From contig CAZGEP010000004.1 of the NCBI GenBank assembly GCA_964524955.1, forward strand, positions 3,627 to 67,626: a stretch of DNA of 64,000 bases, read 5' to 3'. Origin of the DNA: an uncultured Planctomycetota bacterium (GTDB lineage Bacteria; Planctomycetota; CAZGEP01). Of the stretch, positions 20,807-38,418 are shown piece by piece. The translations under genes and the position numbers were made by a program. The first letter of the stretch is position 1; every line of letters begins with the position of its first letter. Below the pieces are notes generated by a model that worked only from the letters and a program-made list of their open reading frames with translations, did not search any database and was not told the origin of the DNA.

Positions 20807-22597
20807 TTATTCCTTTGCCTGTGGCGCGTATTTCAGTATCTCTTTTTTCAGTGAAAAGCCCCTGGGCCTTGGGCCATAGTGCGGAAGCGGTCTGCCACGC
20901 TCATACGCTCCCAGATCCGGCGCCTTGCCGGTATAACCATCGTTGAAATTCGGAAGCCGAACACCTTTGTCCAGGGCGTCGGAGTTCTTGCCCGGCCGCA
21001 GGTCGAAGTCCTCGGGTTTGTATACTCTTCCAACATTCTTTGGCACGGGATCCTTCATCTCAAAACAGGTTTTGTTGTCAATCAGAATCACCGGATGCCT
21101 GTTATAGATGGATGATTTCTTTGAATTAATTTTGATATACGGTCTTCCGTCCTTACCGGGAGCACCTCCGAATCCGTCGTTCTGCATGTCTGCGAATTGA
21201 TACCATCCGGACTGCGTCGCATATCCGGCTCTGGAACCGATAAAGAGGTTGTTCCGCGTGATCAGGTTATCTGTACGGTCCCGGGGATCCTGATGCAGGC
21301 CCAGGCCTTTGTTTACAAAGGTGTTGTGATAGATCACCGCCCCGGAGCTTCCGCTGTTAATACTGTATATCTTCAGGGGGGCATGCGAAGAATTGTATGC
21401 CACGTTTCGAAAAATATAGGCCGGTCCGCCACAAATCGGCTGCGTGGTGTACCCGTGACAGGTATTGATCACGCGGTTGTCGTAATACCGTGTATTGGCC
21501 AGGGTGAAGTCGGCTTCGTATCCATCATCCTCACAGACAAAGGCATCATTATTATGAATATCCGAAGCACTCAGAAATCCCCATGCGGTACCATGAACCG
21601 CATCCCCGATATACTCAAACCGATTGTAGCAGATTATATGACCGGATCCGGTAATCGTGGCTCCGTAACCGCCGGTAATGCCGGTTCGCGGCCACACACC
21701 GTATCCGCGGAAATAATTGTCACTGATAAAATGGTGCTGCGATGCGTAAAAACCTCCGTTATGCGCAATAAAGGCGGTCCCGAAACTCACGAACCTGCAC
21801 CGTCTGAGCACCCAGTGACTGGCCTTGTGTGCGCAGATCAGGTACTGGCGATTCTGCAAGGTTACATCTTCAAACCAGATATGACTGGTGCAGACCGCGC
21901 TGACCAGCCGGCCGCCCGTCTTATGGCTCTTGCCACCGTTGAGGATGGCTTCACCGTCACCAGCTCCCCGAAAGATAATGGGTTTACCGGGCTCACCGGA
22001 TGTTCGGATAGTCAGTGTTCCGTTTACATACACCCCTTTATGAAGCAGGAAGAGATCGCCGGCGCCGGCCCGGTCCACAGCGGTCTGAAGACCGCGGATC
22101 GGGTCTTTCGCTGTGCCGGCTCCACCCGGCTTGCCGGTGCCCAACGGCACGACATGGTAAGTCTTCATGCCTTTGGGCTCCATGGGCTCTTTCCAGGTCC
22201 TCATTGTAAGCAGCTTGTCGGCTTTTCCGCCGTCCGGATCCCTGAGCATGAGTTTGACTTCATATTCTGTATCCGGAAGCAGGTCCACAACACTTCCTGC
22301 AAAAAGCCATCCATTCTTTACATTATGAAACGGTGTACGGTTGGCATGGCTCCGGTCCGGTTGACTGCGAAAAAGCGGCATCCCCTCGCGCCACTTCGCA
22401 GCCCCCCTCTGCCTGAACTGAACATTCACTGCCGCGTTTTTATTCTTATCTCCGATAATTTTCCAGTGCACCCCCAGACAGTGAAGTGTGGACGGGTACT
22501 CCAGCACCTCTCCAGGCTCAGAGGAATCCTTCCACTCGGCAGAGACAAGCGAAGAGCAGCAGAACACAACACATAAGATAAAGGATAGAATCCTCAT
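20807..22597 (-). CDS. Secreted right-handed parallel beta-helix protein, tandem paralog
   Basis: About 75% identical N-terminal half and essentially identical C-terminal half compared with the upstream gene. Confidence 0.5.
   Translation of the reverse strand: MRILSFILCVVFCCSSLVSAEWKDSSEPGEVLEYPSTLHCLGVHWKIIGDKNKNAAVNVQFRQRGAAKWREGMPLFRSQPDRSHANRTPFHNVKNGWLFAGSVVDLLPDTEYEVKLMLRDPDGGKADKLLTMRTWKEPMEPKGMKTYHVVPLGTGKPGGAGTAKDPIRGLQTAVDRAGAGDLFLLHKGVYVNGTLTIRTSGEPGKPIIFRGAGDGEAILNGGKSHKTGGRLVSAVCTSHIWFEDVTLQNRQYLICAHKASHWVLRRCRFVSFGTAFIAHNGGFYASQHHFISDNYFRGYGVWPRTGITGGYGATITGSGHIICYNRFEYIGDAVHGTAWGFLSASDIHNNDAFVCEDDGYEADFTLANTRYYDNRVINTCHGYTTQPICGGPAYIFRNVAYNSSHAPLKIYSINSGSSGAVIYHNTFVNKGLGLHQDPRDRTDNLITRNNLFIGSRAGYATQSGWYQFADMQNDGFGGAPGKDGRPYIKINSKKSSIYNRHPVILIDNKTCFEMKDPVPKNVGRVYKPEDFDLRPGKNSDALDKGVRLPNFNDGYTGKAPDLGAYERGRPLPHYGPRPRGFSLKKEILKYAPQAKE
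20838..21537. repeat. Copy B of the beta-helix gene repeat
   Basis: See copy A. Confidence 0.85.
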
Positions 22598-22971
22598 AAC
22601 AAGTCCCTGTTCTGAAAGAGTGGAAAAAAGTATACGGAAAATGTATTTGCGTTATATACCAGCGTAAGCCAGCTTGTGTTGAAAATTTCAGAATTTCTTT
22701 TTTAAAAGTCGGTTACACAGTTTTTTACACCATGAAACCTTGATTTTTCTCTGCATACATATACAATTTACAGGTACTTCTCAGAAAGGAGAAATAATGA
22801 AAAGTCAGAATAAAATCACACGTGAAAACAAGGAGAACAGTTTTCGCATGAAATTCGGGAACATCAGGAAGAATACACCCAAAAGCACATTGATAATGCC
22901 CACGCCAATCAAACCCGTAAATATCACATAACCGCCGACAAGACTTTCCATTATATATCTGGATAAAAGGG

Positions 22972-23458
22972 TCAAACCCAGTCCACTCGCGGCAAGAACT
23001 GCTCCGCCGACAATAAAGGCAATACCATGCCCCCGCCCTCTGCATGAATCATATCCCGCAGATCATCACATAACATGTCTGCTGTTTTTACAGGAACCTG
23101 GCACTGAATGAAAAAATCACGAACCTCGCTGAGCGTTTTTCCTTTGCGAAGAATTCCTGCGGCTTCCTGCAGCAGAAATTCCATCCTGTCCTCGCTGATT
23201 ACAGGTTCTGTAGCTGTTTCTTCCGATTTCCATTCTTGGATCTGTGGCTCTTCAGCAACCGTTTTCTCTGCACTCGCCTGCGCAAAAAAGTCCGTACGAT
23301 TTTCACGAATTTCACCCTGGATACCCTGTCCACAGCAGGAGCTGCATTTCAGCTGATCCAGCCCGAAACATTCTGAACATAAACTCTTTCCGCCGACAAA
23401 ACAGGTATTGACAGCAGGTCGATCCGGATGGTTTGGACAATGCGCCATGTGTATTCTC
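22972..23458 (-). CDS. Zinc-finger (B-box/zinc-ribbon-like) protein. Probably the 5' part of a frameshifted ZnF-TM gene spanning 22781..23458
   Basis: 'MAHCPNHPDRPAVNTCFVGGKSLCSECFG'. GGGGAG RBS. A +1 frame downstream encodes two TM helices with no start codon of their own. Confidence 0.45.
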
Positions 23459-23622
23459 CCCAAGTAAGAATTCACTTGCATATAGGTATAATATAATACC
23501 GTTTTTCTGACTGTCAAGAGGGAAAACGGCATTTCCGTTTTACACTGGATATCCCTGATCGAATATATTATAATCCTCTGACTGCAGACATTGCATTCAA
23601 AACCTTTATTCGAGGATATGTA

Positions 23623-25098
23623 ATGACCGATAAACCCAACATCCTGCTGATCCACGCTGACCAGCACCGCTATGACTGTCTGGGAGCCTGCGGTAACACA
23701 GACATCAAAACACCCAATATTGACAGACTTGCGCAGGACAGCGTTGTCTTTGACAACAGTTTCTGCCCGCATCCAGTCTGCACCCCGTCGCGGTACTCTC
23801 TGCTGTGCGGCCAGTATATTCACCAGCACCTGGGCCTTACCAACACAAGTACACTTCCCCACGGCATGCCGACACTGCCCCGATCGCTCAAGGCAGAAGG
23901 GTACACGACTGCAGCGGTGGGCAAGATGCACTTTACGCCCACGTATCTGGATGTCGGGTTTGATGAAATGCAGCTGGCTGAACAGTGCGGCAAGGGCCGC
24001 TACGATGATGACTACCATCGCTGGCTGCAAGACCAGGGACTCTGCGACCGCCTGGATATGATCGACCAGGTCAATGAATTCCGGGAACGCGCCCCTGATG
24101 AATACTGGGAGAATTTCGGCGCATTCCAGTCAGACCTGGATGAAGCGCATCACTCCACAACCTGGATCGGTGACCGTGCCCTGGAAAAAATTGAATCTTG
24201 GGACAGCGGACCCAACTTTCTGATGGCAGGATTTATCAAGCCCCACCACCCCTTTGATCCGCCGGCACCATGGGATACCATGTACAATCCGGATGAACTG
24301 ACGCTTCTGCCCGGCTGGACCGAAGAACTGATTCAAGGCGATACCGGCGAATCCTTTTTTGCCTACAAAAACCTGACTGAACAATCCCTGCGCCGCGTCA
24401 TGGCGCTCTACTACGCATCCATCTCTCAGATCGACTTCCACGTTGGCCGGATGATCGACCGTCTCAAGGAAAAGGGCCTGTACGACAACACGGTGATCGT
24501 CTACACCAGCGACCACGGGGATTACATGGGATATCACCACCGCATTCTCAAAGGCTACAGAATGTTCGAACCGCTGGTGCGCGTCCCCCTTCTGATCAAG
24601 TATGCTGCGGACACGGTTCCGGCAGGCAGGGATGAACGGCTGGTGAACAACATTGACGTGGCCCCCACACTGCTTCACGCAGCACAGATCACACCGCCTG
24701 AAACCATGTCCGGCATGAACCTGACTCAAGAAAGCGATGGCCCGGATTACGTGTTCGCGGAAAAGGGCGATGAGTATATGGTCCGATCCCGGACACACAA
24801 ACTGCTGCTCAACCGCAACCCTGACAGGTCCATGTTCTTTGATCTGACGCGCGATCCGCTGGAAATGGAGAATCGCATTAACGACGATCAATACCAGACC
24901 GAGATTGCAGCACTCCGCGACCGCCTGTACGAATGGGCGCTCTTTGACAGCCGTGCAACCAATCACCTGGATCACAATGCTCCCCTGTGCCCATCAAAGA
25001 ATGTTTGTGACGGAGACACTGGACTCTATGAGCACTTCAAACCCATTATGCTGAAAAACGAAGACCAGCCCCTTGAACCGGAAACCGAGCGCAACTGA
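23623..25098 (+). CDS. Sulfatase with canonical C-T-P-S-R motif, no signal peptide
   Basis: 'CTPSRYSLLCGQ' and 'GKMHF'. RBS 'gaggat'. Confidence 0.85.
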   Translation: MTDKPNILLIHADQHRYDCLGACGNTDIKTPNIDRLAQDSVVFDNSFCPHPVCTPSRYSLLCGQYIHQHLGLTNTSTLPHGMPTLPRSLKAEGYTTAAVGKMHFTPTYLDVGFDEMQLAEQCGKGRYDDDYHRWLQDQGLCDRLDMIDQVNEFRERAPDEYWENFGAFQSDLDEAHHSTTWIGDRALEKIESWDSGPNFLMAGFIKPHHPFDPPAPWDTMYNPDELTLLPGWTEELIQGDTGESFFAYKNLTEQSLRRVMALYYASISQIDFHVGRMIDRLKEKGLYDNTVIVYTSDHGDYMGYHHRILKGYRMFEPLVRVPLLIKYAADTVPAGRDERLVNNIDVAPTLLHAAQITPPETMSGMNLTQESDGPDYVFAEKGDEYMVRSRTHKLLLNRNPDRSMFFDLTRDPLEMENRINDDQYQTEIAALRDRLYEWALFDSRATNHLDHNAPLCPSKNVCDGDTGLYEHFKPIMLKNEDQPLEPETERN

Positions 25099-25103
25099 AT
25101 AAA

Positions 25104-26717
25104 ATGAACCCTGCAACAACCCACACCATCACACCAACTGTACCCGCGCAGAAAAGCGACCGCGTCAGTCTCTGGACAGCGGTTCGGGATTTTGTTTCTT
25201 CCAGCGACCTTGTATCACCGCTGTCCAGAGAAGACCTCGAAACCATGGCTGAAGAACTCTGCACTCAGACTGGAACCGAAACACAGTATCGTGACTTCCT
25301 GATGGTGCTGCTTAATACGGAATCCTGGAAAAAAACGGTATCCATGGTTCCCTATGAACGCCGCATGCTGCTCCTGCCTCAATGCCTGCGCACCCGGTCC
25401 GACTGCCCGGCGGAAATGGATGACCTGGGTCTGCTCTGTGAAAACTGCGACCGATGTCCGCTGGGAAAAATCACGCAGCTTGCCGAAGATCTGGGGTATG
25501 TCACCCTGATTGCAGAAGGCACCACCGTGGTCACCCGGCTCTTTGAGCAGGGAAAGATCGACTGCGTGGTCGGCGCCAGCTGCATGGAAACCCTGGAAAA
25601 GACCTTTCCCCTCAGTGTACGGGAGGCAGTGCCCTCCCTGGCCGTCCCCCTGAACAGCCACGGCTGCGACAACACATCCGTGGACACAGAACAACTGATT
25701 GAAATGATCCGCCTGAGGAATCCGGACCAGACAAGAGAGCGCATCAACATCCCGTCCGTCAAAAATGAAGTACGCTCCTGGTTTGACGCCGATCAGATTG
25801 GCAGCATCCTTGAGAGCAGCCAATCTGAAACCAGCCGGATCGCCACAGACTGGGTGGCAGAAAGCGGAAAACGATGGCGCCCCATTGTTATGGCCTCTGC
25901 CTTTCAGGCGCTCTCAGAAACCACAGCACCCTTCTCAGCAACCATAAAGAAAGCAGCCACTGCAGTGGAATGCTTTCACAAGGCATCCCTGGTTCACGAT
26001 GACATTGAAGACAATGACACCCTGCGAAACGGGCATCAGACCCTGCACCGCAGACACGGAATCCCCATTGCACTGAACATCGGCGATTATCTGATCGGCG
26101 AAGGCTACCGCTTGATCTCCAGTCTGGACCTGGACAGCCAACGCAAATGCCAGATGCTTTCCATTGCCTCTCAATGTCATCACACGCTCTGTCTGGGACA
26201 GGGAGAAGAACTCGCTATGCTAAAGGCTGATCTTCCACCCACACCACATAAACTCCGAGAAATATTCGCCAACAAGACATCACCGGCATTTGAGACCGGG
26301 CTTCGGCTCGGAGCAGCCTGCGCAAATGCAGACAGCAAAACCCATCCGATACTCTCCGCCTACAGCAGCGCCATTGGCATTGCCTATCAGATCAATGATG
26401 ATCTCCACGATCTTAACACAGACACCATAGAAGCCAATCCTGCTGTACTCAAAACATCATTTCTCCTTGCCATGGCCTGGGAATCCGCTAAAGAGGCAGA
26501 GCGAAAGGATCTTGCTCAATTCTGGAACAACCCCAATGCAGACACAAATAAAGAAAGACTGCTCTGCATTCTTAATCAGCTGAATATCCGGGAACAGGCT
26601 TCTGATATTATTGAAACGTATCAGCGTACAGCTCTGGAATCACTCAGACCTCTACAGAATACAGATCTGAAAATCCTTCTCTGGCGCCTCAGTCACAGAA
26701 TTTTTGAGGATGAGTAG
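25104..26717 (+). CDS. Fusion protein: N-terminal Cys-rich domain of unknown function (DUF116-like?) plus a C-terminal trans-isoprenyl diphosphate synthase domain
   Basis: FARM 'DDIED' and SARM 'DDLHD' motifs in the C-terminal 270 aa. The N-terminal about 260 aa have a CxxCxxC cluster. Starts 6 nt after the sulfatase stop. Confidence 0.6.
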   Translation: MNPATTHTITPTVPAQKSDRVSLWTAVRDFVSSSDLVSPLSREDLETMAEELCTQTGTETQYRDFLMVLLNTESWKKTVSMVPYERRMLLLPQCLRTRSDCPAEMDDLGLLCENCDRCPLGKITQLAEDLGYVTLIAEGTTVVTRLFEQGKIDCVVGASCMETLEKTFPLSVREAVPSLAVPLNSHGCDNTSVDTEQLIEMIRLRNPDQTRERINIPSVKNEVRSWFDADQIGSILESSQSETSRIATDWVAESGKRWRPIVMASAFQALSETTAPFSATIKKAATAVECFHKASLVHDDIEDNDTLRNGHQTLHRRHGIPIALNIGDYLIGEGYRLISSLDLDSQRKCQMLSIASQCHHTLCLGQGEELAMLKADLPPTPHKLREIFANKTSPAFETGLRLGAACANADSKTHPILSAYSSAIGIAYQINDDLHDLNTDTIEANPAVLKTSFLLAMAWESAKEAERKDLAQFWNNPNADTNKERLLCILNQLNIREQASDIIETYQRTALESLRPLQNTDLKILLWRLSHRIFEDE

Positions 26718-26738
26718 ACCGAAAGACAAGGCGTTGCT

Positions 26739-28184
26739 ATGACATCCTGGTCAATGATTTTTGGAATCTTACTGATACTGACATTGCCGATATATGGTCT
26801 GTGGAGTATCGTTGGCGCACTCAGTAGTTTTCACCTTGAAAAATCGTATAAACTGGATATCATCAAAAAAACATGCAATTTTTTGAAGGCACTCAAGCCG
26901 TTGAAAACAACTCATACAATTATTACCGGTGACAGTCGCCAGATGAATCTGGTAGAGGATCAATCCGTTCAGCTTGTCATTACATCACCGCCCTATTGGC
27001 AACTCAAAGATTACGGAACTGAAAACCAGATCGGTTTTCATGAAGATTATGAAACGTATATCAACAATCTGAATATAGTCTGGAAAGAATGTTACCGTGT
27101 GCTGGAAAACGGCTGCCGTTTATGTATAAATATCGGTGATCAGTTTGCCAGAGCAGTTTATTACGGCAGATATAAAATCATTCCAATTCGTACGGAAATC
27201 ATCAAGTTTTGTGAAAGCATTGGATTTGATTACATGGGAGCCGTTATCTGGCAGAAACACACCACAACAAATACAACCGGTGGTGCCTCCTTAATGGGGA
27301 GCTACCCAACACCTCGAAACGGTATCGTATCTATTGATTATGAATTTATTCTCCTATTCAAGAAACTTGGAAAACCTTTAAGGGTCAAAAAAGAGGTCAA
27401 GAATGAGTCAAAGTTGACCAAGGAAGAATGGAAAGAATATTTTTCCGGACACTGGACATTCGGCGGCATACGGCAGAACGGCCACATTGCCATGTTTCCT
27501 GAAGAACTGCCCAAACGATTGATTAAAATGTTCGCTTTTGTCGGAGAAACGGTCCTAGATCCATTTATGGGAAGCGGAACCACAAGCCTTGCAGCCAGAA
27601 ATCTGAACAGGAATTCGATTGGGTATGAAGTCAACCCGGAATTCATTACAGTAGCCAAAGAAAAACTGAATATCGACCAGGGTGATTTTTTCGGCACAGA
27701 GTATCTCTTCAAGAACGACCATTTTAGTCTGAATGTCAACAAAGAGTTGTCTTCTTTGCCGTATCGTTTCAGAGATCCCCACCAACTGGACAAAAAGACT
27801 GACCCAAGAATGATGCAGTTCGGTTCAAAAATAAACAATTCTGCATCTGAAAGAGAAACCTATTATTCTGTAAAAGAGATCATCAGCCCGGAACTGATTA
27901 AATTAAGCAATGGAATTATCATACGCCTGATCGGTGTAAAAGAGAAACCAAATGTCAACGGAAAAGCAACACAATTCCTTAAAACTAAAACAAAGGGACA
28001 GAGGGTTTTCTTAAAATATGACACCCAGAAACACGATGAAGACAATCACTTGATGTGCTATTTGTATTTAAAAAATAAAACATTTATCAATGCCCATCTG
28101 ATAAAAACCGGCCTTGTAGAACCGGATTGTTCGATGAGCTTCAAATACAAAGATAAATTTATGCGCCTGGGAGTGGGAGAATAA
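26739..28184 (+). CDS. Beta-class DNA methyltransferase (N4-C or N6-A) fused to a C-terminal staphylococcal-nuclease (SNase)-like domain
   Basis: Motif IV 'TSPPY' precedes motif I 'DPFMGSGTT'. C-terminal 'IIRLIGV...GKATQFL...VFLKYD...NAHLIKTGLVEPD' is SNase-like. AT-rich. Confidence 0.7.
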   Translation: MTSWSMIFGILLILTLPIYGLWSIVGALSSFHLEKSYKLDIIKKTCNFLKALKPLKTTHTIITGDSRQMNLVEDQSVQLVITSPPYWQLKDYGTENQIGFHEDYETYINNLNIVWKECYRVLENGCRLCINIGDQFARAVYYGRYKIIPIRTEIIKFCESIGFDYMGAVIWQKHTTTNTTGGASLMGSYPTPRNGIVSIDYEFILLFKKLGKPLRVKKEVKNESKLTKEEWKEYFSGHWTFGGIRQNGHIAMFPEELPKRLIKMFAFVGETVLDPFMGSGTTSLAARNLNRNSIGYEVNPEFITVAKEKLNIDQGDFFGTEYLFKNDHFSLNVNKELSSLPYRFRDPHQLDKKTDPRMMQFGSKINNSASERETYYSVKEIISPELIKLSNGIIIRLIGVKEKPNVNGKATQFLKTKTKGQRVFLKYDTQKHDEDNHLMCYLYLKNKTFINAHLIKTGLVEPDCSMSFKYKDKFMRLGVGE

Positions 28185-28820
28185 ATGGCCAAGGAATGGA
28201 TATTAAACAGCGCAATGAACCGTTTCCAGCTGAATTTCAAACGAAATGTTGGCCCTACATCAGAAAGCATACGGGCGTGCGAGCCAAAGACCCTGGAAGA
28301 GTGGAAAGCGTATTATTTCCGGGAAGTTCGGAGCAAAGACCACATCATTGATCTTGGCAAGAAACTTTACATCAAGATTACGGAAGTCATTCAAGCCGAA
28401 GTCGAGCAAATAACAGAGCAAGACTGCATAGACTATATGCTGAAGATGGTCGTTGAGAGAACATTTGATGGATACATCACTGAAATCAAAACGATATACG
28501 GACAAATAGAAAAAGAACTGGGATGCAAGGTAAAACCTTCATCGGATGAATGGGACAGAAAGTTCAACGTGGATTTCTTTATTAAAGTAAACGACTATTA
28601 TCTTGGCCTTCAGATCAAACCGGTAAACGAGGGCATTCAGCTCTCACAAATATATAAAGAAAAAGATCTTCAGAAAACAAGCCATCAGAAATTCACTGAT
28701 CAATTCGGCGGTCAAGTCTTTTATATCTTTTCTACCAAAGTCAGTGGAAATAAAATTATTAAAAATCCGGAAGTTATTGACGAAATCCGAAACGAAATCA
28801 CCCGGCTTAACCATGCCTGA
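28185..28820 (+). CDS. Putative type II restriction endonuclease (PD-(D/E)xK-like), partner of the upstream methyltransferase
   Basis: The ATG abuts the methyltransferase stop (TAAATG). AT-rich. Candidate 'E-x-D...D-x12-Q-I-K' catalytic arrangement. No other family recognised. Confidence 0.4.
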   Translation: MAKEWILNSAMNRFQLNFKRNVGPTSESIRACEPKTLEEWKAYYFREVRSKDHIIDLGKKLYIKITEVIQAEVEQITEQDCIDYMLKMVVERTFDGYITEIKTIYGQIEKELGCKVKPSSDEWDRKFNVDFFIKVNDYYLGLQIKPVNEGIQLSQIYKEKDLQKTSHQKFTDQFGGQVFYIFSTKVSGNKIIKNPEVIDEIRNEITRLNHA

Positions 28821-29685
28821 TCTCTTTGCCCGAATGATTCAGACCGCTTCATATTCAACAGAGCAGCTTGAGCCGGATGCACGTGAAGACATCACCTCAT
28901 TCATCCTCAACTGCATGAATCCGGACGGCGGTTTTCAGGGGCGTTCTGAGGAAAGCGACCTCTATTACACCTGCTTTGCGCTCATGTCCCTTCATGCGCT
29001 TGGAAAAACAATGCCCGAAGACACAACCGACTGGCTCATCAGCCAGGCCGCGAAGCCGCCAACAGATCGGGTCCACCTCGCCTCACTGATCCTATGCCTT
29101 GAAATAACCGGACAGGCTCAGAAGGCAAACCTGCTGCGAAAAAAACTCCAGCCATCCTGTGCGGACATTCTACACTGCAAAATATCAGGCAGCAAAAACA
29201 CTGAAAACCTGTACAGCATATTCCTGTCCATGCTCTGTATGAAACCCCCGGAAGATACCGTACCGAACGCTCAAAGACTGACCCGGGAGCTTGAGACGTT
29301 TCAAGTCCGAAACAAAACCTATGCCAACGAACCCGGCAGCAGCCAGTGCAGTACGCCGGCCACAGCCGCGGCCCTGGCAATTCTTTTCGCACTCAACATT
29401 ACGCCGGATCCCCGGACAATCAACCACCTGATAACCATGCATGAGAAGACCGGTGGATTCAGGGCCGCGGAACTCACCCCACTTCCTGACCTGCTCTCCA
29501 CCGCCACAGCCCTCTTCTCGATCAGTCTCCACCAGAGCATACCGCAAGCTATCAAGAAGCCGTGCCTGACGTTTATCCAGGACTGCTGGCTGAAAAACGG
29601 GGGCTTCTGCGGCAGCCTTGTGGATGATATGCCGGACTGCGAGTATACCTTTTACGGACTGCTGGCGCCGGGATGCGTTGGTTAA
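28813..29685 (+). CDS. Prenyltransferase/squalene-oxidase-repeat (PFTB-like alpha-alpha toroid) protein, cytoplasmic
   Basis: Repeated 'GGF' and aromatic motifs. The start overlaps the REase stop codon (ATGCCTGA). Confidence 0.5.
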   Translation: MPDLFARMIQTASYSTEQLEPDAREDITSFILNCMNPDGGFQGRSEESDLYYTCFALMSLHALGKTMPEDTTDWLISQAAKPPTDRVHLASLILCLEITGQAQKANLLRKKLQPSCADILHCKISGSKNTENLYSIFLSMLCMKPPEDTVPNAQRLTRELETFQVRNKTYANEPGSSQCSTPATAAALAILFALNITPDPRTINHLITMHEKTGGFRAAELTPLPDLLSTATALFSISLHQSIPQAIKKPCLTFIQDCWLKNGGFCGSLVDDMPDCEYTFYGLLAPGCVG

Positions 29686-30552
29686 AGACAGTCGATGGTC
29701 AATGGTCTATGGCTAATTGCGCTGAAAACCTCCGAATTGACAGGATAAAGAATGACAAAGTATGCATCGCACGGTCGCCGCAGGCATGCAGTTGATCCGT
29801 CCGCTGACGGAAGACACAGGGGCACGGAGAAAAACAACAGCTAAAGATTTTCAACAACGAAATAGACGAAATAAACGAAAAAACTGCATTGAAAACAGAA
29901 TTATGGGAACGCTGAAGATGCAAGAGACGCTATCAAAAGATCAGCACTGCCACAGCCGGTCATGGCCCGGCGCGTCCGGGGCATCCAGGAGCAGCCGACA
30001 CCGATTACGTCCTTATCCGTATATCCTGTTTATCCTGTAAATCCTGTCCAATTCTCTTTCTTTTTGTTGTTCTGAACTAAGACAAAATAGTAGACGGGAT
30101 TGACGGGTCGGCGGAGCCTTGTTTTTGATCCGCCTAGGCGGAATTGACAGGATGAGAAAAGAACAGAACTCTCCTTGTTCTGCGATTTCAGACTGTCAAT
30201 AAAAAGATGAATCCGCTCATCAAGCGTTTTCTCCCGGTTCTGGCTGGAAAGCAAAATAAACTTACTCGCCCAGATTGCGTGAAACTTAATAGTAGACGGT
30301 TTTACCAGTTTTTTATCCTCTAGATACTGCTGAAATTCTTTCAGAACAGCCCTAATATATTCGTTTCTCCTTAATAGGCAAAGTAAATGCTATTAAAATA
30401 TAGTCATACTATCATACATTCCAATTCGAATATTTCAAAAAAATAATTTTTTATTTGACACGGTTCAGTGGTTTTATAAAATTTACCGTTGTCAGAAATC
30501 ATAACTGTAACCTATACACACTAAATTGTTCCCGTCGCGCTGCGCGCGACGG

Positions 30553-30709
30553 GAACGGCGAGTTGAGGGCTTCGCCCCTCGCCCGATTAGTTCCCTGCGC
30601 GCTGATTCGCGCGCCGAGAACAAATCGTTCGAGGGGTCCATTGGCCTATCAACTCCGGGCGCTGAAGCGCCCTCCGATGATAGGTCAACGGCCCCTCAAC
30701 TCGCCGTTC
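30553..30709. repeat. GC-rich, multi-hairpin palindromic element (MITE/REP-like) with about 17-bp terminal inverted repeats
   Basis: Left TIR 'gaacggcgagttgaggg' and right TIR 'ccctcaactcgccgttc'. Internal hairpins include 'gagggcttcgcccctc', 'gcgcgctgattcgcgcgc' and 'gggcgctgaagcgccc'. Confidence 0.5.
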
Positions 30710-30720
30710 GAAGCAAGAGA

Positions 30721-30942
30721 ATGAAGAAACTGAATCGCGAAGAATTGATCATCCTTGTTCAACGCATCATGGATGTCGATGGCACAGAAGAAGAGATCGA
30801 CCAGATGATGGACACATTGGAGGCCAACGTGATCCACCCGGAAGTCTCCGATCTGATATTCTACTCAAAGAAGGAAGACCCGGCCGCAGAGGAGATCGTG
30901 GACGAAGCACTGGCTTACAAGCCCATCATTCTTGGGCCGTGA
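30721..30942 (+). CDS. Colicin/pyocin DNase immunity protein (Im7/Im9 family)-like small protein
   Basis: 73 aa. '...HPEVSDLIFYSKKEDP..EEIV' parallels Im9 '...[23 protein letters not shown]'. Confidence 0.55.
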   Translation: MKKLNREELIILVQRIMDVDGTEEEIDQMMDTLEANVIHPEVSDLIFYSKKEDPAAEEIVDEALAYKPIILGP

Positions 30943-31112
30943 GCGAGACTTCGAACAAGGTCGGTGGAGCGTACGGCTAAAGCCGCCGCTCACCGACGGC
31001 GTTCGCCGGAAAAAGACAGAGATTCCGCAGATTTTCTACGATTTCCGTAAAGCTATGGACCCGAAGATGGGTCTATACTCATAGCAAAGGAAATTTCTGC
31101 AAGGACAACGAC

Positions 31113-32066
31113 ATGAAAGACTTGGCGAAAACCATACAAAACGCCTGTTCTGGCGACCTATACTCATTCGGCAGACTTGTCACCTATTATCAGGATATGG
31201 CATACGCTTATGCGTACTCGCTTTTAGGCGACTTCCATCTTGCCCAAGACGCTACCCAGGAAGCATTTATTGATTCCTATCGGCACCTATCATCGCTTCG
31301 GGTTCCCGAAGCGTTCCCCGGGTGGTTTCGACGGATTGTGCTCAAGCACTGTAATCGACTCACCAGAGGCAAGAGCATACAAACCCTGCCGCTTGACGTG
31401 GCGGGAGAGCAGGAGAGTCCCGAACTGCGGCCCGACGAGGTGCTGATTCGGAGTGAAATACGCTCTTCCGTTCTTGGCGCACTACGGGCGTTGTCTCAGG
31501 ATCAACGGACCGTAGCCTCACTTTACTATATCAACGGCTATTCCCAAGCCGAGGTAGCCGATTTTCTCGATGTGCCGAAAACAACTGTAAACAATCGCCT
31601 TCATGCCGCAAGGCGACGACTAAAGGAAAGGATGGTCACCATGGTGCAGCAAGAACTGACGAACAATGCTCTGCCAAAGGACGAGTTCTGCCACGTAGTG
31701 CTAGACAAGCTCTCGAAGCAACAGGCGGGCCTGATGGCCGGCAGTCCAGTCAACAAGTTTGCCGATCTTGTCATTACCCAAGCCCTGCACGACAAGTGCA
31801 AGCAGATGAGCCTATCCCTCGATGAGAATGGCACCGTCTGCCTGAGTGCACTGTATGATCGCGAATGGAAGGAATGGGCTCCGCCTCCAGCTCGCATCAT
31901 CCCTGCGCTTCTTTCGTTTTTGGCTGCCGCTGCAACATCGGATTCAAACTCCGACGAGTTGGCTGCAGAACTTCCTTTTGTTGCGTCAGATGGTCAGAAG
32001 TACATCGCAACCATCGAGGTGAAGAACATTACCGTCGGGATCACGTTGCCGGAAACGGGGCACTGA
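31113..32066 (+). CDS. ECF-type RNA polymerase sigma factor with a roughly 140-aa C-terminal extension
   Basis: Region 2 'DATQEAFIDSYR' and region 4 'LSQDQRTVASLYYINGYSQAEVADFLDVPKTTVNNRLHAARRRLKE'. Extra C-terminal domain of unknown fold. Confidence 0.7.
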   Translation: MKDLAKTIQNACSGDLYSFGRLVTYYQDMAYAYAYSLLGDFHLAQDATQEAFIDSYRHLSSLRVPEAFPGWFRRIVLKHCNRLTRGKSIQTLPLDVAGEQESPELRPDEVLIRSEIRSSVLGALRALSQDQRTVASLYYINGYSQAEVADFLDVPKTTVNNRLHAARRRLKERMVTMVQQELTNNALPKDEFCHVVLDKLSKQQAGLMAGSPVNKFADLVITQALHDKCKQMSLSLDENGTVCLSALYDREWKEWAPPPARIIPALLSFLAAAATSDSNSDELAAELPFVASDGQKYIATIEVKNITVGITLPETGH

Positions 32067-32166: not shown

Positions 32167-32757
32167 ATGAGCGTAGAATTACTTTCTGACTTTATCAGAG
32201 AAAAATATGAGGTGCATGAATGGAAACATGCGTGTGCCATATTGAAAGAGGATTTTACGAACGAATGGAATGATATTATATCTGTATTGGAAAGTTTTCG
32301 CCTAAAAAAGAGTTGGATTACAACTCCAGGAGGCAGGAAATCAAAGGTTTCTGCATATATTGATGGCTATTTATATGATAGGGATTGGGTTGAAAAAGAA
32401 TTTGAGACGAAAGTGACTGTTGATGATCATACAATGGACACACCAACTCATAAAATCGACTGTTTTAAAAATAGAGTGGCTCTTGAAATTGAGTGGAACA
32501 ACAAGGACCCTTTTTATGACCGAGACCTAAATAATTTCAGATTACTGTTTGATTTACGTGCAATTAGCGTTGGAGTGATCATTACACGCTGTGAAGATCT
32601 TCAAGATATTTTCAATGATTTGGGAAGAGGGGCATCTTATGGTGCATCTACAACGCATATGGGGAAATTACTCCCAAGGATTGAAGGTGGAAGTGGAGCT
32701 GGTTGTCCACTCGTTGTTTTTGGAATATCAAAATCACTTTATGTGGAGGATTGCTAA
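32167..32757 (+). CDS. Type II restriction endonuclease of the BglII/BamHI/BstYI family
   Basis: 'KIDCFKNRVALEIEWNNKDPFYDRDLNNFRLL' aligns with BglII 'DIDFGKRDTLVEVQFSNYPFLLNNTVRSELF' (D-x8-E-x-E/Q). RBS 'aaaggag'. AT-rich. Confidence 0.6.
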   Translation: MSVELLSDFIREKYEVHEWKHACAILKEDFTNEWNDIISVLESFRLKKSWITTPGGRKSKVSAYIDGYLYDRDWVEKEFETKVTVDDHTMDTPTHKIDCFKNRVALEIEWNNKDPFYDRDLNNFRLLFDLRAISVGVIITRCEDLQDIFNDLGRGASYGASTTHMGKLLPRIEGGSGAGCPLVVFGISKSLYVEDC

Positions 32758-32759
32758 TT

Positions 32760-33410
32760 ATGAACGCATCTGATGATCTGTTAAATTTTATTGGAAAAAG
32801 AAAATTTTCAACAATACTTGCTGACCCTCCATGGCAGTTTCAAAACAGGACGGGCAAAATGGCACCAGAGCATAAAAGGTTATCTCGGTACCCTACGATG
32901 AAATTACAAGAAATTAAAGATTTGCCGGTTGAAGCTATTGCGGAAGACCGAGCACATCTTTATTTGTGGGTTCCAAATGCACTTTTATCTGAAGGCATGC
33001 AAGTTATGGAGAATTGGGGATTTAAATATAAAACAAATCTAATATGGTACAAGATTAGAAAAGACGGCGGCCCCGATAGAAGAGGTGTTGGATTTTATTT
33101 TAGAAATGTGACTGAAATAATTCTTTTTGGTGTTCGGGGCAAGAATATCAGAACACTACAACCCGGAAGAAGTCAGGAAAACATTATATCATCAAGAAAA
33201 AGAGAACACAGTAGAAAACCAGATGAACAATATGATTTAATTGAATCTTGTAGTTGGGGACCTTTCTTAGAACTTTTTGGTAGAGGGCCAAGAGAAGGCT
33301 GGACAACTTGGGGCAATCAGGCAGAAGAATATACCCCTGATTGGGAAACATATTCAAACCATTCTAATGGGGATAGAATAATACCGTTTAAGAAAGTCAG
33401 GACAGGTTAA
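32760..33410 (+). CDS. MT-A70-family N6-adenine DNA methyltransferase
   Basis: 'ILADPPWQF' (DPPW) motif. RBS 'ggagga'. Starts 3 nt after the REase stop. Confidence 0.7.
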   Translation: MNASDDLLNFIGKRKFSTILADPPWQFQNRTGKMAPEHKRLSRYPTMKLQEIKDLPVEAIAEDRAHLYLWVPNALLSEGMQVMENWGFKYKTNLIWYKIRKDGGPDRRGVGFYFRNVTEIILFGVRGKNIRTLQPGRSQENIISSRKREHSRKPDEQYDLIESCSWGPFLELFGRGPREGWTTWGNQAEEYTPDWETYSNHSNGDRIIPFKKVRTG

Positions 33411-33423
33411 TCACTAGAATCGT

Positions 33424-34269
33424 ATGCATTATTATACGCAAAACTATAACAATGTGATGGATTTTGAGCGATCATGCATGGTTGCAGAAGAAGCTAATCC
33501 ACCATTCTATTATGATGTTTCTAATGGAATAAAACTATATAATGCAGACACTTTTTCATTTTTCAAAAATATACCAGATGGTTGTGTTGATCTAATATTT
33601 GCCGATCCTCCGTATTTCCTGTCTTCAGGAGGTATAACTTGCCATAGTGGTAAAATGGAAAATGTAAATAAGGGGGAATGGGATAAATCAAAACCAATTG
33701 AGGAAATTCACAATTATAACAAACAGTGGCTATCAGAGTGCAATCGTATTTTGAAAAAGCATGCTACTATTTGGGTTTGTGGAACATTTCACAATATTTT
33801 TTCTGTCGGATTCGCTTTGCAAGAATTAGATTTTAAAATATTAAACAATATAGTGTGGGAAAAGAAAGATCCTCCGCCGAATTTAACAAAAAAATACTTT
33901 GTCCATGCTTCTGAACATCTTCTTTGGGCATCAAAAACAAAATATTCTAAGCATATCTTTCATCAAGATGCTCTCAAAGAAGTTTCAAACGGGGAACCAA
34001 TGAAGTCTGTATGGAGGGATATATGGAAATTGCCATCAGTAGATCATTTAGAGAAAGTTTTTGGTAAACACCCAACACAAAAACCAGAAGAGGTTATTCG
34101 GAGAGCAGTGCTTGCATCAAGTAATATTGGGAGTCTGGTTTTCGATCCATTTTGTGGTAGTGGGACAACAGGAGTTGTCTGTAGAAGAATGAACAGAAGG
34201 TTTGTTGGCGTTGATAATAATTTAAAGTACTTGGATATCGCAAAAAAAAGAATAGCATCAGTAAAATGA
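33424..34269 (+). CDS. Beta-class DNA methyltransferase (N4-cytosine or N6-adenine; DPPY)
   Basis: Motif IV 'FADPPY' precedes motif I 'DPFCGSGTTG'. Confidence 0.7.
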   Translation: MHYYTQNYNNVMDFERSCMVAEEANPPFYYDVSNGIKLYNADTFSFFKNIPDGCVDLIFADPPYFLSSGGITCHSGKMENVNKGEWDKSKPIEEIHNYNKQWLSECNRILKKHATIWVCGTFHNIFSVGFALQELDFKILNNIVWEKKDPPPNLTKKYFVHASEHLLWASKTKYSKHIFHQDALKEVSNGEPMKSVWRDIWKLPSVDHLEKVFGKHPTQKPEEVIRRAVLASSNIGSLVFDPFCGSGTTGVVCRRMNRRFVGVDNNLKYLDIAKKRIASVK

Positions 34270-34367
34270 AAAATAGAGAGAAATTGCACATAACAAATCA
34301 CTGCACTGGATTTTTACTCCGCTGCGCTCCGTAAAAACCAGTGAGTTCAGTCGTTGGCGCCACTGCA

Positions 34368-35801
34368 ATGAATAAAAACAAGCCAAATATCATTCTGTTC
34401 ATCACGGAACAACACCGCGGTGACTGTCTCGGCATAGAAAACCACCCCGTGTTGATGACCCCGAACATGGACGCCATCGCGGGCGCGGGCGTCCGTTTCA
34501 CCCGGGCCTACTCCAACTGTCCGACCTGCATTGCCGCGCGACGCACGATTCTGTCCGGCCAGTTCCCCCCCACCCACGGTATGGTCGGATATCAGGAGGA
34601 TGTACCCTGGGAAATCGAGGACACCCTTCCTGCGGTCCTGTCGAAAGCGGGTTACGAAACCGCCTGGATCGGACGCAGCATGCACCAGTACCCGATCGAC
34701 AAACCGTTCGGGTTCGAGCACTACGTCCGAAGCGGGCTCGACGCGGCGAGCCCCTACATGCGTTTCTTTCGCGAACGCCGACCCGACGACTGGGAAGCCC
34801 AATTCGGCACCGGCATCAGGAACAACGATTGGACCTCGCGGCCCTGGCATTTGGACGAGGACCTGCATCACACGAGCTGGACGGTCCATGAAGCGTTGCG
34901 CTTTCTCAGAGACCGCGATACGACGCGGCCCTTCTTCCTGGTGGTTTCGTTCCTTGCCGCCCATCCGCCCCTGGTGCCGCCCGCGTTCTACCTGGAGCGC
35001 TACATCCGCACCGGAGTTCCTGATCCCGTGATCGGCGACTGGGCCGAGCCGCCTCCCAATGGCGGCAAGGGGCTGGATATCGGCGGACACCGGGTGGACC
35101 TGAAAGGGGAAGCCCTGCTATGCGCGCGAGCCGGCTACTACGGGCTAATCAACCACATGGACGATCACATCCGCCGCCTCCTTAACCCCGTGGCCGGAGT
35201 GGACCGCATGACGGGCAACAACACGGCCGTCATGCTGACAAGCGACCATGGCGAGATGCTTGGCGACCACTATCGGTGGCACAAGGTCGTCCCCTACGAG
35301 CCGTCCGCGCGCATCCCGATGCTGCTGCGTGCTCCGGCACACTTCGGAATCGAGCCCGGAACCGTGATCGACCGGCCCGTTTGCCTGACGGACGTCATGC
35401 CGACGTTGCTCGACCTGGCGGGCACGCCCGTGCCGCCAGGCGTAGAGGGACTGAGCCTCTTGCCGCTGCTACGCGGCGAAGAGACATCCTGGCGCGACTA
35501 TCTTCACATCGAACATGCGCCCATGCACCATGCGCTGACGGATGGTCGGGAAAAATATGTCTGGTTCGTCACCGACGGCCGCGAGCAGCTCTTCTGCCTG
35601 GACAACGATCCCTCGGAGTGCCATGATCTGGCCGGTTGTCCCGCGGCAGCGGAACGCCTATCACACTGGCGGGGACGAATGATTCAGGAACTGGACGGCC
35701 GCCCGGAGGGTTTCTGTGATAGCGGAACCCTCATTCCCGGCAGTGAGTACAAACCTGTGTGCTCGCGCGCCAACAAGCCGGATGCTCGCGACGGCTCATA
35801 G
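34368..35801 (+). CDS. Sulfatase, no signal peptide, variant FGly motif C-I-A-A-R
   Basis: 'MNKNKPNIILFITEQHRGD' and 'CPTCIAARRTILSGQ'. High GC. Confidence 0.75.
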   Translation: MNKNKPNIILFITEQHRGDCLGIENHPVLMTPNMDAIAGAGVRFTRAYSNCPTCIAARRTILSGQFPPTHGMVGYQEDVPWEIEDTLPAVLSKAGYETAWIGRSMHQYPIDKPFGFEHYVRSGLDAASPYMRFFRERRPDDWEAQFGTGIRNNDWTSRPWHLDEDLHHTSWTVHEALRFLRDRDTTRPFFLVVSFLAAHPPLVPPAFYLERYIRTGVPDPVIGDWAEPPPNGGKGLDIGGHRVDLKGEALLCARAGYYGLINHMDDHIRRLLNPVAGVDRMTGNNTAVMLTSDHGEMLGDHYRWHKVVPYEPSARIPMLLRAPAHFGIEPGTVIDRPVCLTDVMPTLLDLAGTPVPPGVEGLSLLPLLRGEETSWRDYLHIEHAPMHHALTDGREKYVWFVTDGREQLFCLDNDPSECHDLAGCPAAAERLSHWRGRMIQELDGRPEGFCDSGTLIPGSEYKPVCSRANKPDARDGS

Positions 35802-35839
35802 CCGCGCGAGATCCGCGACGTTCGCTCAACTGAAGAAAC

Positions 35840-37159
35840 ATGGAGATGTGCATGACACATAAGAATATCCTCCTAATTACGACAGATCAGCAGAGTTCCA
35901 CCATGCTAAGCTGCAGCGGTAATCCTGACCTGCACACACCACACATTGATACATTGGCGTCGGATGGTGTGCGCTTCGAAAAAGCATATGCAGCCCAACC
36001 GCTTTGTATTCCACAACGCTGTTCTTGGTACACGGGCCTCATGCCACACCGCCACGGAATTACTTTCAATGTGACAAACAAAGACATCCAGGCAGAATCA
36101 ATGATGGGGCAGATATTTCGGGACGCGGGCTACGCAACCGGATATTCCGGAAAGTGGCACATCAATACTTCGCCTGAAAACAAACCATTCCACGGATTTG
36201 AGTGGATGAACAATATCCGGTGCAACGGTGCAGACGCGGGGATTGCGGCTGACTTTGAAACGTTTCTCAGTATGAATTGTGACCGACCGTTCATCTTTTC
36301 AGCCTCATTCAATAATCCCCATAACATATGTGAAGCCGCTCGCGGAGGCCCATTTCCCGACGGCGAACCGGGCTTGCCAGAGAATACGAACCAGTTGCCT
36401 CGACTTCCGGAGAATTTCGGCGTGCCCGAAAGGGAACCTTCCGTGATCCGCGAAGTGCAAAATATGTTGAGAATAAGTAACTATCCAACGAGCAACTGGG
36501 ACGAGATGCGATGGCGTCTGCACCGCTGGTTCTACTGCCGACTTACGGAAATTGTAGACAGGCGCATTGGCGGGCTTCTTGAAACCCTGCAACAAAGAGG
36601 TCTGAGCGACAACACGCTTATTGTCTTTACTAGTGATCATGGAGACGGCAACGCCCACCACCAATGGAACCAGAAACAGGTATTGTATGATGAATCGGCG
36701 AGGGTGCCCTTTATTGTGAGCCGGCCAGGTAGCAGAATGAATCGTCTCGACGGAAAACAGCTCGTCAATACAGGGATTGATCTCATTCCTACATTATGCG
36801 GGCTTGCCGAGATTGACTGTCCGCCTCACCTGGATGGTCATGATTGGTCCGAGGCGTTGTCAAACGACGATCTTCCATCACGGCGAGACCATGTGATTAT
36901 CGAGACGGAATTTGGAACGTTCGGAAAGCCATTGGGGTATCGGGGACGGGCGGTGCGCACTGGGCGCTATAAATACATGGTTTATGATCGGGGTGAAAAC
37001 CGTGAGTATTTTTGCGATATGAATAACGACCCCGGCGAGACTATCAACCTTGCCGGCATCCCTGACCATCAAGAGGAATTGCTTAGTCACCGCGCCCTTC
37101 TGCGCGACTATATAGCCAAAACCGACGACATATTTCCTGTTGAGATGCTACCGGCTTAA
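35840..37159 (+). CDS. Sulfatase, no signal peptide (C-I-P-Q-R)
   Basis: 'NILLITTDQQ', 'CIPQRCSWYTG' and 'GKWHI'. Confidence 0.8.
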   Translation: MEMCMTHKNILLITTDQQSSTMLSCSGNPDLHTPHIDTLASDGVRFEKAYAAQPLCIPQRCSWYTGLMPHRHGITFNVTNKDIQAESMMGQIFRDAGYATGYSGKWHINTSPENKPFHGFEWMNNIRCNGADAGIAADFETFLSMNCDRPFIFSASFNNPHNICEAARGGPFPDGEPGLPENTNQLPRLPENFGVPEREPSVIREVQNMLRISNYPTSNWDEMRWRLHRWFYCRLTEIVDRRIGGLLETLQQRGLSDNTLIVFTSDHGDGNAHHQWNQKQVLYDESARVPFIVSRPGSRMNRLDGKQLVNTGIDLIPTLCGLAEIDCPPHLDGHDWSEALSNDDLPSRRDHVIIETEFGTFGKPLGYRGRAVRTGRYKYMVYDRGENREYFCDMNNDPGETINLAGIPDHQEELLSHRALLRDYIAKTDDIFPVEMLPA

Positions 37160-37274
37160 CTGTTGTCCTTGATCATAGGCAAATTAACGAAGAGGGAAAT
37201 AGCAGGAGCGAACAAGCCGTTGCTCGCGACGGCTTATAGCCGCACGAGAACGGCGAGTTCGGAGACAAGACAAT

Positions 37275-38396: not shown

Positions 38397-38418
38397 CGTT
38401 CGAACAAAAGGAGCCACT

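Follow-up and report, generated by a model that had tools for sequence, protein, structure and literature searches.

The 64-kb stretch of DNA analysed here (the window) contains a 2.1-kb segment, 26718–28820, that has a GC content of 0.398, while the other 2.1-kb intervals average 0.511 ± 0.025 (z = −4.4) and none of them falls below 0.453. Two plus-strand open reading frames (ORFs) of 481 aa (26739–28184) and 211 aa (28185–28820) occupy this segment. The TAA stop codon of the first directly abuts the ATG of the second (28182–28187), and the second ends in an overlap with the start of a host gene. The initial annotation had described an AT-rich type II restriction-modification (R-M) cassette with a TAAATG junction and a stop/start overlap with the host gene; the composition and both junctions were confirmed, and matches of the two proteins to the Pfam families RE_MjaI and N6_N4_Mtase bear out the R-M assignment. 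No small HTH ORF that might encode a controller (C) protein was found in 26718–28820, where the methyltransferase (M) and restriction (R) genes abut. The features of the locus are listed in Table 1.

Table 1. Features of the R-M cassette and the adjoining host genes (positions in the window)
Feature	Position	Strand	Details
DUF116-polyprenyl synthase fusion, upstream host gene, intact	25104..26717	+	Pfam DUF116 + polyprenyl_synt
AT-rich cassette leader	26718..26900	+	183 bp, host synthase stop to probable methyltransferase start
Beta-class N4/N6 DNA methyltransferase	26901..28184	+	Probable m4C at CTAG; 427 aa from TTG 26901
SNase-fold (OB) domain of methyltransferase	27852..28184	+	Basic, pI 9.4; without SNase catalytic residues
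MjaI-family Type II restriction endonuclease	28185..28820	+	211 aa, PD-(D/E)xK fold
REase stop / host prenyltransferase-like start overlap, ATGCCTGA	28813..28820	+	TGA 28818-28820, ATG 28813-28815
Prenyltransferase beta-like (alpha-alpha toroid), downstream host gene	28813..29685	+	Pfam Prenyltrans E = 6e-13

The 211-aa protein, originally suggested to be a restriction endonuclease (REase), does belong to a nuclease family. It matched Pfam RE_MjaI (PF09568) with an E value of 2e-48 (164.8 bits, cut-off 22.7) over profile positions 1–157 of 164, and in a BLASTP comparison it was 26% identical over 164 aa (E = 2e-10) to the REase of the MthZI system on plasmid pFZ1. The D-x12-Q-I-K arrangement seen in the initial annotation is present as D130-x12-Q143-I-K145 and is invariant in 30 close homologs; D130 and K145, both conserved in R.MthZI, are candidate catalytic residues. 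The protein has the alpha-beta-beta-beta-alpha-beta core of the PD-(D/E)xK fold, one strand of which opens with an acidic residue while the following one carries x-K. The acidic middle residue of the canonical (D/E)-x-K is missing, this position being Q143 here and Ser in R.MthZI. The motif is a variant, and a second acidic residue must be at some other position. The stop codon of close homologs aligns with GCC 28815–28817, making the REase one codon longer here, and on this alignment its last codons and stop are host-derived sequence. The C-terminal tail is variable among the homologs. Single-sequence PDB searches returned nothing useful for the REase or for the C-terminal domain of the methyltransferase. 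The exact REase sequence had no match in the contig index, and no homologs were found on phages or, at E ≤ 1e-5 with the REase as query, on plasmids; the pFZ1 copy was found via the methyltransferase.

The methyltransferase matched Pfam N6_N4_Mtase (PF01555, E = 2e-43) and PDB entry 2zie (E = 4e-53), and the PADLOC model MTase_II PDLC03259 covers it end to end, including a C-terminal staphylococcal nuclease (SNase)-like domain (E = 1.8e-173). Using the numbering of the 481-aa ORF, from which 54 is subtracted to obtain that of the 427-aa protein, SPPY (residues 83–86) lies N-terminal to DPFMGSGTT (274–282), the motif order of the beta class to which the initial annotation had assigned it. The catalytic domain extends to approximately residue 311 and is joined by a conserved linker of about 60 residues (~312–370) to the SNase-fold domain (~372–481). 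Alignment with M.MthZI showed 34% identity (E = 1e-40) over residues 1–257, so that homology to the CTAG-specific m4C group (M.MthZI, M.MjaI and M.BfaI) takes in both the catalytic and the target-recognition region.

The 481-aa gene model first used for this protein is probably 54 codons too long. The reading frame is open from ATG 26739, and the additional 54 codons encode a hydrophobic stretch that is missing from M.MthZI and from most of the aligned homologs, which begin at the residue aligned to L55. Three homologs start later, at M69, and one (P0154) has an N-terminal extension that is unrelated in sequence. Because the homologs lack the first 54 codons and DNA similarity to cassettes in other hosts begins at 26902, the true start is probably TTG 26901 and the extension is probably untranslated. 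A longer, 481-aa protein is formally still conceivable, as an SD-like AAGG is also found upstream of ATG 26739. The leader that precedes TTG 26901 resembles the cassette and not the host in composition (GC 0.40) and shows no similarity at the DNA level to the cassettes of other hosts.

M.MjaI and M.MthZI are m4C enzymes acting on CTAG and MjaI is CTAG-specific (PMC5867850, PMC11033074, PMC2615612), and the SPPY motif also fits an m4C enzyme (PMC5867850). By homology to these characterized archaeal enzymes, at 26% (REase) and 34% (methyltransferase) identity, the product of the methyltransferase is most likely N4-methylcytosine in CTAG. In the window, CTAG was found 10 times where shuffles predict 114, a depletion of approximately 11-fold, and it has the lowest value of the 16 palindromic 4-mers (Markov O/E 0.35). 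As bacteria are commonly poor in CTAG whatever their R-M systems, the depletion is consistent with the system and not diagnostic of it. An enzyme pair of the same family, inserted at the same place, could recognize a sequence other than CTAG, in which case the depletion would be an unrelated general bacterial bias. The low identity to R.MthZI and M.MthZI, the replacement of the putative catalytic Q143 by Ser in R.MthZI and the presence of a CTAG at 27555, inside the methyltransferase gene itself, leave some room for this. We nevertheless consider it unlikely, given that the REase and the methyltransferase each have their homolog in one characterized CTAG system, that the Pfam family was defined on a CTAG enzyme, that SPPY suits m4C formation and that CTAG is by far the most depleted of the palindromic 4-mers.

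A sigma-70-like promoter match (TTGAAA-16-TATCAT) was found at 26836–26863 in the leader, an AT-rich stretch that would have arrived together with the module. Because no terminator-like site was found on the plus strand across the cassette, co-transcription with the host genes is also probable. Once expressed, the methyltransferase would place m4C in CTAG on host DNA and the endonuclease would cut unmethylated CTAG in incoming DNA. The cassette is predicted to be active, but it could instead be a decaying or silenced remnant in which the endonuclease is inactive or unexpressed and the methyltransferase survives as an orphan. The native stop of the REase has been lost and its end fused to host sequence, and MjaI and MthZI are poorly expressed in some contexts (PMC2615612). 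However, neither ORF is truncated, frameshifted or interrupted by a premature stop, the query keeps the shared residue at each position that does not vary in the alignments of close homologs, and a good ribosome-binding site, GGGAG, precedes the REase ATG. With a tail that varies among homologs, an extension of one residue is unlikely to matter. A remnant is thus quite improbable, and an intact, potentially active system is preferred.

The host genes on either side are also intact. The synthase gene ends at TAG 26715–26717, and the C-terminus of its product is where that of its closest Kiritimatiellae relatives is found. When 80 related loci were compared, the prenyltransferase-like gene was directly adjacent to the synthase gene, on the same strand, in 45 (median gap 13 nt). 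There was no downstream prenyltransferase match in the other 35, of which seven had <1.3 kb of downstream sequence and 28 had 3–8 kb. Among the cassette-free loci, 13 have a 4-nt overlap between the stop of the synthase gene and the start of its downstream neighbour, and in two, L003 (ATGTCTGA) and L059 (GTGTCTAG), this overlap is 8 nt. By comparison with these, ATGCCTGA probably represents the stop/start overlap that the two host genes had ancestrally. The adjacency of the flanking genes spans Kiritimatiellae, Verrucomicrobiota and Planctomycetota, and the cassette was present in none of the 80 loci. The initial annotation had placed the cassette within a sulfatase/isoprenoid operon. The interruption of neighbouring host genes holds, and the conserved pair is that of the synthase and prenyltransferase-like genes; the sulfatase is not part of the conserved neighbourhood.

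Insertion between a conserved host gene pair is thus supported by the comparison of loci. The module would have entered within the few nucleotides where the synthase and prenyltransferase-like genes normally overlap, and the endonuclease would have lost its own stop, so that termination now occurs at the TGA overlapping the host ATG. Neither target-site duplications, flanking direct or inverted repeats nor a mobility gene were found at the ends of the cassette, and there is no tRNA in the 64-kb window; because flanking repeats and tRNA are absent, no mechanism of integration is proposed.

The R-M proteins are 76–77% identical to proteins from other phyla, while the best homolog of the flanking synthase anywhere was 47% identical (one genome per species; a collection of 5.8 billion proteins). 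Unrelated hosts carry the same M→R module, with defence and mobile genes around it. Composition and cross-phylum identity together support horizontal acquisition of the cassette. It could also be argued that there was no insertion, and that the cassette is a long-term resident whose low GC reflects selection on R-M genes and not recent transfer. The cassette joins the host gene seamlessly, homologous cassettes are everywhere AT-richer than their hosts, suggesting that AT-richness may be intrinsic to the module, and no empty site in a near relative could be shown because the closest homolog of the flanking gene is only 47% identical. This is very unlikely in view of the immediate adjacency, frequently with overlap, of the flanking genes in all three of these lineages, the absence of the cassette from all 80 loci, and R-M proteins whose similarity to those of other phyla far exceeds that of the host proteins tested. 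The insertion had been described as old, and nothing suggests this. The composition is unameliorated (GC3 0.43–0.46 in the R-M genes and 0.57–0.66 in the flanking genes) and the high identity of the R-M genes across phyla does not point to it either. We conclude, with good though not complete confidence, that this is a horizontally acquired Type IIP module of the MjaI/MthZI family, with probable CTAG specificity, inserted at the junction of the synthase and prenyltransferase-like genes.

The C-terminal domain of the methyltransferase has the SNase OB fold, as the initial annotation had recognized. A shallow hhalign comparison with SNase using 12 sequences gave a probability of 2.4% and was replaced by a profile of the domain built from 63 diverse family members. 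The reference residues in SNase are the Ca2+ ligands D21, D40 and T41, the general base E43, and R35 and R87. In the profile alignment D40 is replaced by K/R, E43 by P and R87 by N or a variable residue, T41 is variable, and retention is limited to R35 (R/K) and, in part, D21 (E/D/N). On the basis of the alignment and a model, the domain is probably without catalytic function. That it is an active nuclease, making the methyltransferase a bifunctional modification-cleavage enzyme, is hardly credible, since against the genuine fold, the retention of R35 and often an acidic D21 position and a match to the NCBIfam thermonuclease NucI (E = 1e-7) stand the substitutions at D40, E43 and R87, a separate dedicated REase encoded next door, and the precedent of the inactive SNase folds well known in Tudor-SN and eTudor proteins (PMC7641849). 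Fusion of a methyltransferase to such a domain had been thought uncommon, but it is the rule in the bacterial family. All 119 close homologs among the matches listed align across the C-terminal region, and most of these carry a precomputed SNase hit. Judged from these alignments, the tail is standard in the bacterial branch, and the archaeal prototype M.MthZI lacks it. No publication on the fusion came up in literature searches.

With the Ca2+-binding and catalytic residues lost, the most likely role of this basic domain is a non-catalytic one, in binding DNA or as a tether. It might anchor the methyltransferase on DNA for full protection of a very frequent 4-bp site, it might stand in for a C protein by autoregulating the M-R transcript, or it might hold the partner endonuclease in check. 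Separately, because the endonuclease took over the host stop/start overlap, expression of the downstream host gene may have become dependent on a selfish module. That the dead SNase/OB domain and its linker have a specific function, one not described in the papers searched, and that the host gene has become dependent in this way, is offered tentatively and is rather doubtful.

The main value of these findings lies in annotation. The 211-aa ORF can be assigned to the MjaI family, CTAG and m4C are proposed for the pair, a corrected start is proposed for the methyltransferase, and the 'thermonuclease family protein' label that some pipelines put on these methyltransferases is probably misleading. 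The locus also illustrates cleanly how an R-M module can lie in the overlap of two translationally coupled host genes, neither of which is damaged.

The cassette is an ordinary R-M system of the well-populated MjaI/MthZI family. Its REase shares the family RE_MjaI with MthZI from Methanothermobacter plasmid pFZ1 and MjaI from Methanocaldococcus jannaschii (MJ0984), and M.MthZI is likewise a beta-class SPPY enzyme, similar across the catalytic domain and with the same MKTTH N-terminus (PMC5867850, PMC2615612). These sequences are distant from the cassette, for which the same specificity is presumed. M.MthZI (355 aa) lacks the SNase-like domain, and the MthZI genes in pFZ1 are convergent, whereas those found here are co-directional and abutting. 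Staphylococcal nuclease and the SN domains of Tudor-SN/eTudor proteins differ in that the domain here is fused to a DNA methyltransferase and, by its residues, is not a nuclease. Much closer are the bacterial 'long-form' modules of Bacteroidota, Marinimicrobia, Desulfobacterota, Calditrichia and Lentisphaeria (PADLOC PDLC03259 / REase_II PDLC03450), with 72–78% protein identity and approximately 68–72% DNA identity across both genes, the same M→R order, a methyltransferase of 413–430 aa and the SNase-like tail. In some of these copies M and R are separated by a further small ORF that is not found here, and the modules usually lie amid toxin-antitoxin genes, AbiEii, GmrSD, IS66 or an integrase fragment, whereas this cassette lies between two overlapping biosynthetic genes. 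The mode of insertion has already been described for R-M systems acting as mobile elements in operon-like clusters (Furuta, Abe & Kobayashi 2010, PMC2853133). Though there is no long target duplication or flanking repeat here, the case they described is alike in that a Type II R-M unit is found at a translation start/stop junction with the target genes intact.

The AT-richness that the initial annotation had noted for the segment holding the methyltransferase gene and the 211-aa ORF was confirmed and is well past chance. GC content over 26718–28820 was 0.398; across the rest of the 64 kb, windows of 2.1 kb averaged 0.511 ± 0.025 (z = −4.4), and the lowest had 0.453. GC3 was 0.43–0.46 in the two cassette genes and 0.57–0.66 in the flanking genes. 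Both gene junctions described there were also seen in the raw sequence: the methyltransferase TAA is followed without a gap by the ATG of the 211-aa ORF (28182–28187), and the TGA of the latter (28818–28820) overlaps the ATG of the next gene (28813–28815), as ATGCCTGA.

Features of the restriction-modification (R-M) cassette and neighbouring DNA
Feature	Position	Strand	Description
DUF116-polyprenyl synthase fusion	25104–26717		Upstream host gene
Methyltransferase	26739–28184	+	481 aa, ORF call
N-terminal extension	26739–26900	+	54-aa strongly hydrophobic, transmembrane-like peptide (MTSWSMIFGILLILTLPIYGLWSIVGALSSF...); SD-like AAGG ahead of its ATG
Linker	27672–27851		ORF residues 312–371, between methylase and SNase-like domains
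REase	28185–28820	+	211 aa, ORF call, abuts preceding ORF
Prenyltransferase beta-like	28813–29685		Downstream host gene
Intergenic region	30000–30500		AT-rich (GC about 0.39), several strong promoter-like sites
Genes between cassettes	30526–32066		138-aa ORF, colicin/pyocin-immunity-like match (PF01320, E = 4e-5); ECF-type sigma factor, 317 aa
Second R-M cassette	32167–34269	+	GC 0.35–0.37, GC3 0.26–0.29
BglII-family REase			Second cassette; 196 aa, PF09195, E = 8e-46
MT-A70 methyltransferase			Second cassette; 235-aa ORF, overlaps REase end
CcrM-like N6_N4 methyltransferase			Second cassette; 281 aa

The 211-aa protein matched Pfam RE_MjaI (PF09568) over nearly the entire profile (E = 2e-48), as well as PADLOC Type II REase models. 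It had 4751 homologs; those among the matches listed were 71–77% identical and came from Marinimicrobia, Desulfobacterota, Bacteroidales and others, several being labelled 'MjaI family restriction endonuclease'. The PD-(D/E)xK-like D-x12-Q-I-K arrangement proposed initially lies in the correct structural place. When compared with R.MthZI, the REase of Methanothermobacter plasmid pFZ1, D130 and K145 were conserved but Q143 aligned with a Ser, and the predicted motif is a variant one. The methyltransferase matched Pfam N6_N4_Mtase (E = 2e-43) and has the beta-class motif order, with SPPY N-terminal of DPFMGSGTT. Among solved structures, Thermus TTHA0409 methylase (2zie) came closest (E = 4e-53), ahead of N4-cytosine methyltransferases.

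The methyltransferase probably lacks the 54-codon hydrophobic extension that ATG 26739 would add. Seven of 11 aligned close homologs, about 424–430 aa long, begin at the residue matching L55 (TTG 26901), to which the start of M.MthZI, the pFZ1 methyltransferase, also aligns, and DNA similarity to the cassettes of other hosts begins at 26902. Three shorter models in the same set start at M69, and one homolog (P0154) has an unrelated N-terminal extension. The extension is probably an untranslated leader, and the 183-bp stretch it belongs to (26718–26900), which has a cassette-like GC of 0.40 and includes a sigma-70-like match (TTGAAA-16-TATCAT, 26836–26863), probably came with the module. Weak SD-like motifs precede both candidate starts, so the longer form keeps some standing, and the extension might conceivably anchor the methyltransferase in the membrane or form a small leader peptide instead.

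The fusion of a methyltransferase to an SNase-like domain had been thought uncommon, which does not hold for this family. All 119 close homologs among the matches listed (72–78% identical) align over the C-terminal region, most with a precomputed SNase match beside the methylase domain, and the full protein is covered by a 423-position PADLOC Type II MTase model (E = 1.8e-173). For M.MthZI and the shorter PADLOC models, the match is confined to the catalytic domain. The family thus has two forms, one short and archaeal-type, the other long and bacterial. The SNase-like domain was present in 689 clusters at 50% identity and, in 10 sampled clusters, its commonest partner was an N6_N4 methylase (six of 10, five of these with a Pfam SNase match). 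A 63-sequence profile of the domain was aligned to nuclease A (hhalign E = 8e-7, 109 columns). In the profile, D40 is replaced by Lys/Arg, E43 by Pro and R87 by Asn or a variable residue, T41 is variable, D21 is E/D/N and only R35 is still basic. The nuclease active site is thus lost, a pattern known from eTudor proteins, whose SNase folds are inactive (PMC7641849). The domain is basic (pI 9.4), and its most likely role is non-catalytic DNA binding or tethering. On its own, the linker preceding it is predicted to be disordered, but its many invariant residues (L340, Y342, F344, D346, D351, K352, D355, P356, F361, G362, S363 and I365) suggest folding against a partner, either the catalytic domain, DNA or the REase.

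By their Pfam matches, the genes on either side of the cassette are the synthase fusion gene and the prenyltransferase beta-like gene; the cassette is inserted precisely at the junction of these two genes, which normally overlap. Scanning one genome per species recovered 80 synthase loci from Kiritimatiellae, Verrucomicrobiota and Planctomycetota, all with at most 47% identity. The prenyltransferase-like gene lies directly downstream on the same strand in 45 of them, and neither R-M gene was found in any of the 80. The two genes are separated by a median of 13 nt. Their stop and start codons overlap in some loci, by 4 nt (GTGA, ATGA or TTGA) in 13 and by 8 nt in two, ATGTCTGA (L003, Kiritimatiellae) and GTGTCTAG (L059). 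In light of these overlaps, ATGCCTGA seems to be the stop/start overlap of the ancestral host genes. Close REase homologs have their stop codon at the position of GCC 28815–28817, and DNA similarity to them ceases by 28808; the native stop of the REase thus appears to have been lost, with the gene now ending at the old host TGA. As the synthase C-terminus (...RIFEDE*) stops at the same point as in its closest relatives, both host genes are intact. Type II R-M units inserting into operon-like clusters at start/stop sites have been described (PMC2853133).

No repeats, tRNA or mobility genes were found at the cassette ends. No terminator-like site was found on the + strand across the cassette either, and this absence makes co-transcription with the host genes plausible. 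In about 11 related loci (L030, L036, L005, L010, L011, L018, L026, L049 and L078 among them) the two host genes are ~0.3–1.3 kb apart; L030 has a 412-aa ORF without a Pfam match between them (5355–6593), and the gap of about 640 nt in L010 lacks any ORF of at least 80 aa. The junction may be a recurrent insertion site or the site of an optional third gene.

The R-M proteins are 76–77% identical to proteins from other phyla, while no homolog of the host synthase above 47% identity was found in a 5.8-billion-protein collection, which is strong evidence that the cassette was gained horizontally. The insertion proposed initially stands, but not its age, as the composition is un-ameliorated and the nearest synthase homolog leaves no close relative for dating. 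Nor was the suggested sulfatase/isoprenoid operon upheld: sulfatase matches occurred in only five of the 80 loci, were weak (25–28% identity) and lay at least 1 kb away.

A second, even AT-richer R-M cassette lies 3.3 kb downstream. Given the overlap of its MT-A70 ORF with the end of the REase, that methyltransferase may actually start further downstream. The BglII-like REase had no PADLOC match, and AGATCT is not depleted in the window (14 sites, about 15 expected from base composition). The intergenic region between the cassettes contains two of the ten CTAG sites of the window. The entire stretch of 26.7–34.3 kb may have been pieced together from acquired DNA. The surrounding regions (20807–25098 and 34341–40167) contain many sulfatases (23623–25098, 34341–35801, 35840–37159) and abundant glycoside-hydrolase or chondroitinase-like genes, and the best matches of the genes flanking the cassette were in Kiritimatiellae. 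Together these suggest a sulfated-polysaccharide-degrading PVC-group host that would have no close sequenced relative.

The methyltransferase-REase module was also found in unrelated hosts, amid toxin-antitoxin genes, AbiEii, GmrSD, IS66 and an integrase fragment. In each of the three host contexts that were compared, it was AT-richer than its flanks, and in two the difference was marked. Some of these modules have an extra small ORF between the two genes (5346–5999 in L081/L082, 5681–5998 in L085–L087; 217 or 105 aa, with no Pfam match), which is absent from the cassette in the window.

CTAG occurred 10 times in the window, where dinucleotide-preserving shuffles gave an expectation of 114, and no other of the 16 palindromic 4-mers was as depleted (maximal-order Markov O/E 0.35, at least 0.81 for the others). 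As CTAG is commonly scarce in bacteria for other reasons, this counts as support for a CTAG target but does not settle it. Plasmid pFZ1 encodes M.MthZI (355 aa) and a convergent annotated MjaI-family REase, and MthZI is a characterized CTAG system. Aligned with M.MthZI, the methyltransferase of the window shows 34% identity (E = 1e-40) from the first residues on, with MKTTH common to both. We consider it likely that the cassette recognizes CTAG and modifies it as m4C. The m4C CTAG methyltransferases M.MjaI, M.MthZI and M.BfaI are beta-class enzymes of 303–364 aa with SPPY (PMC5867850, PMC11033074), MthZI cleaves at C/TAG (PMC11033074) and MjaI (MJ0984) is active and specific for CTAG (PMC2615612). 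The cassette is an apparently intact Type IIP R-M module of this MjaI/MthZI family, in the bacterial long form.
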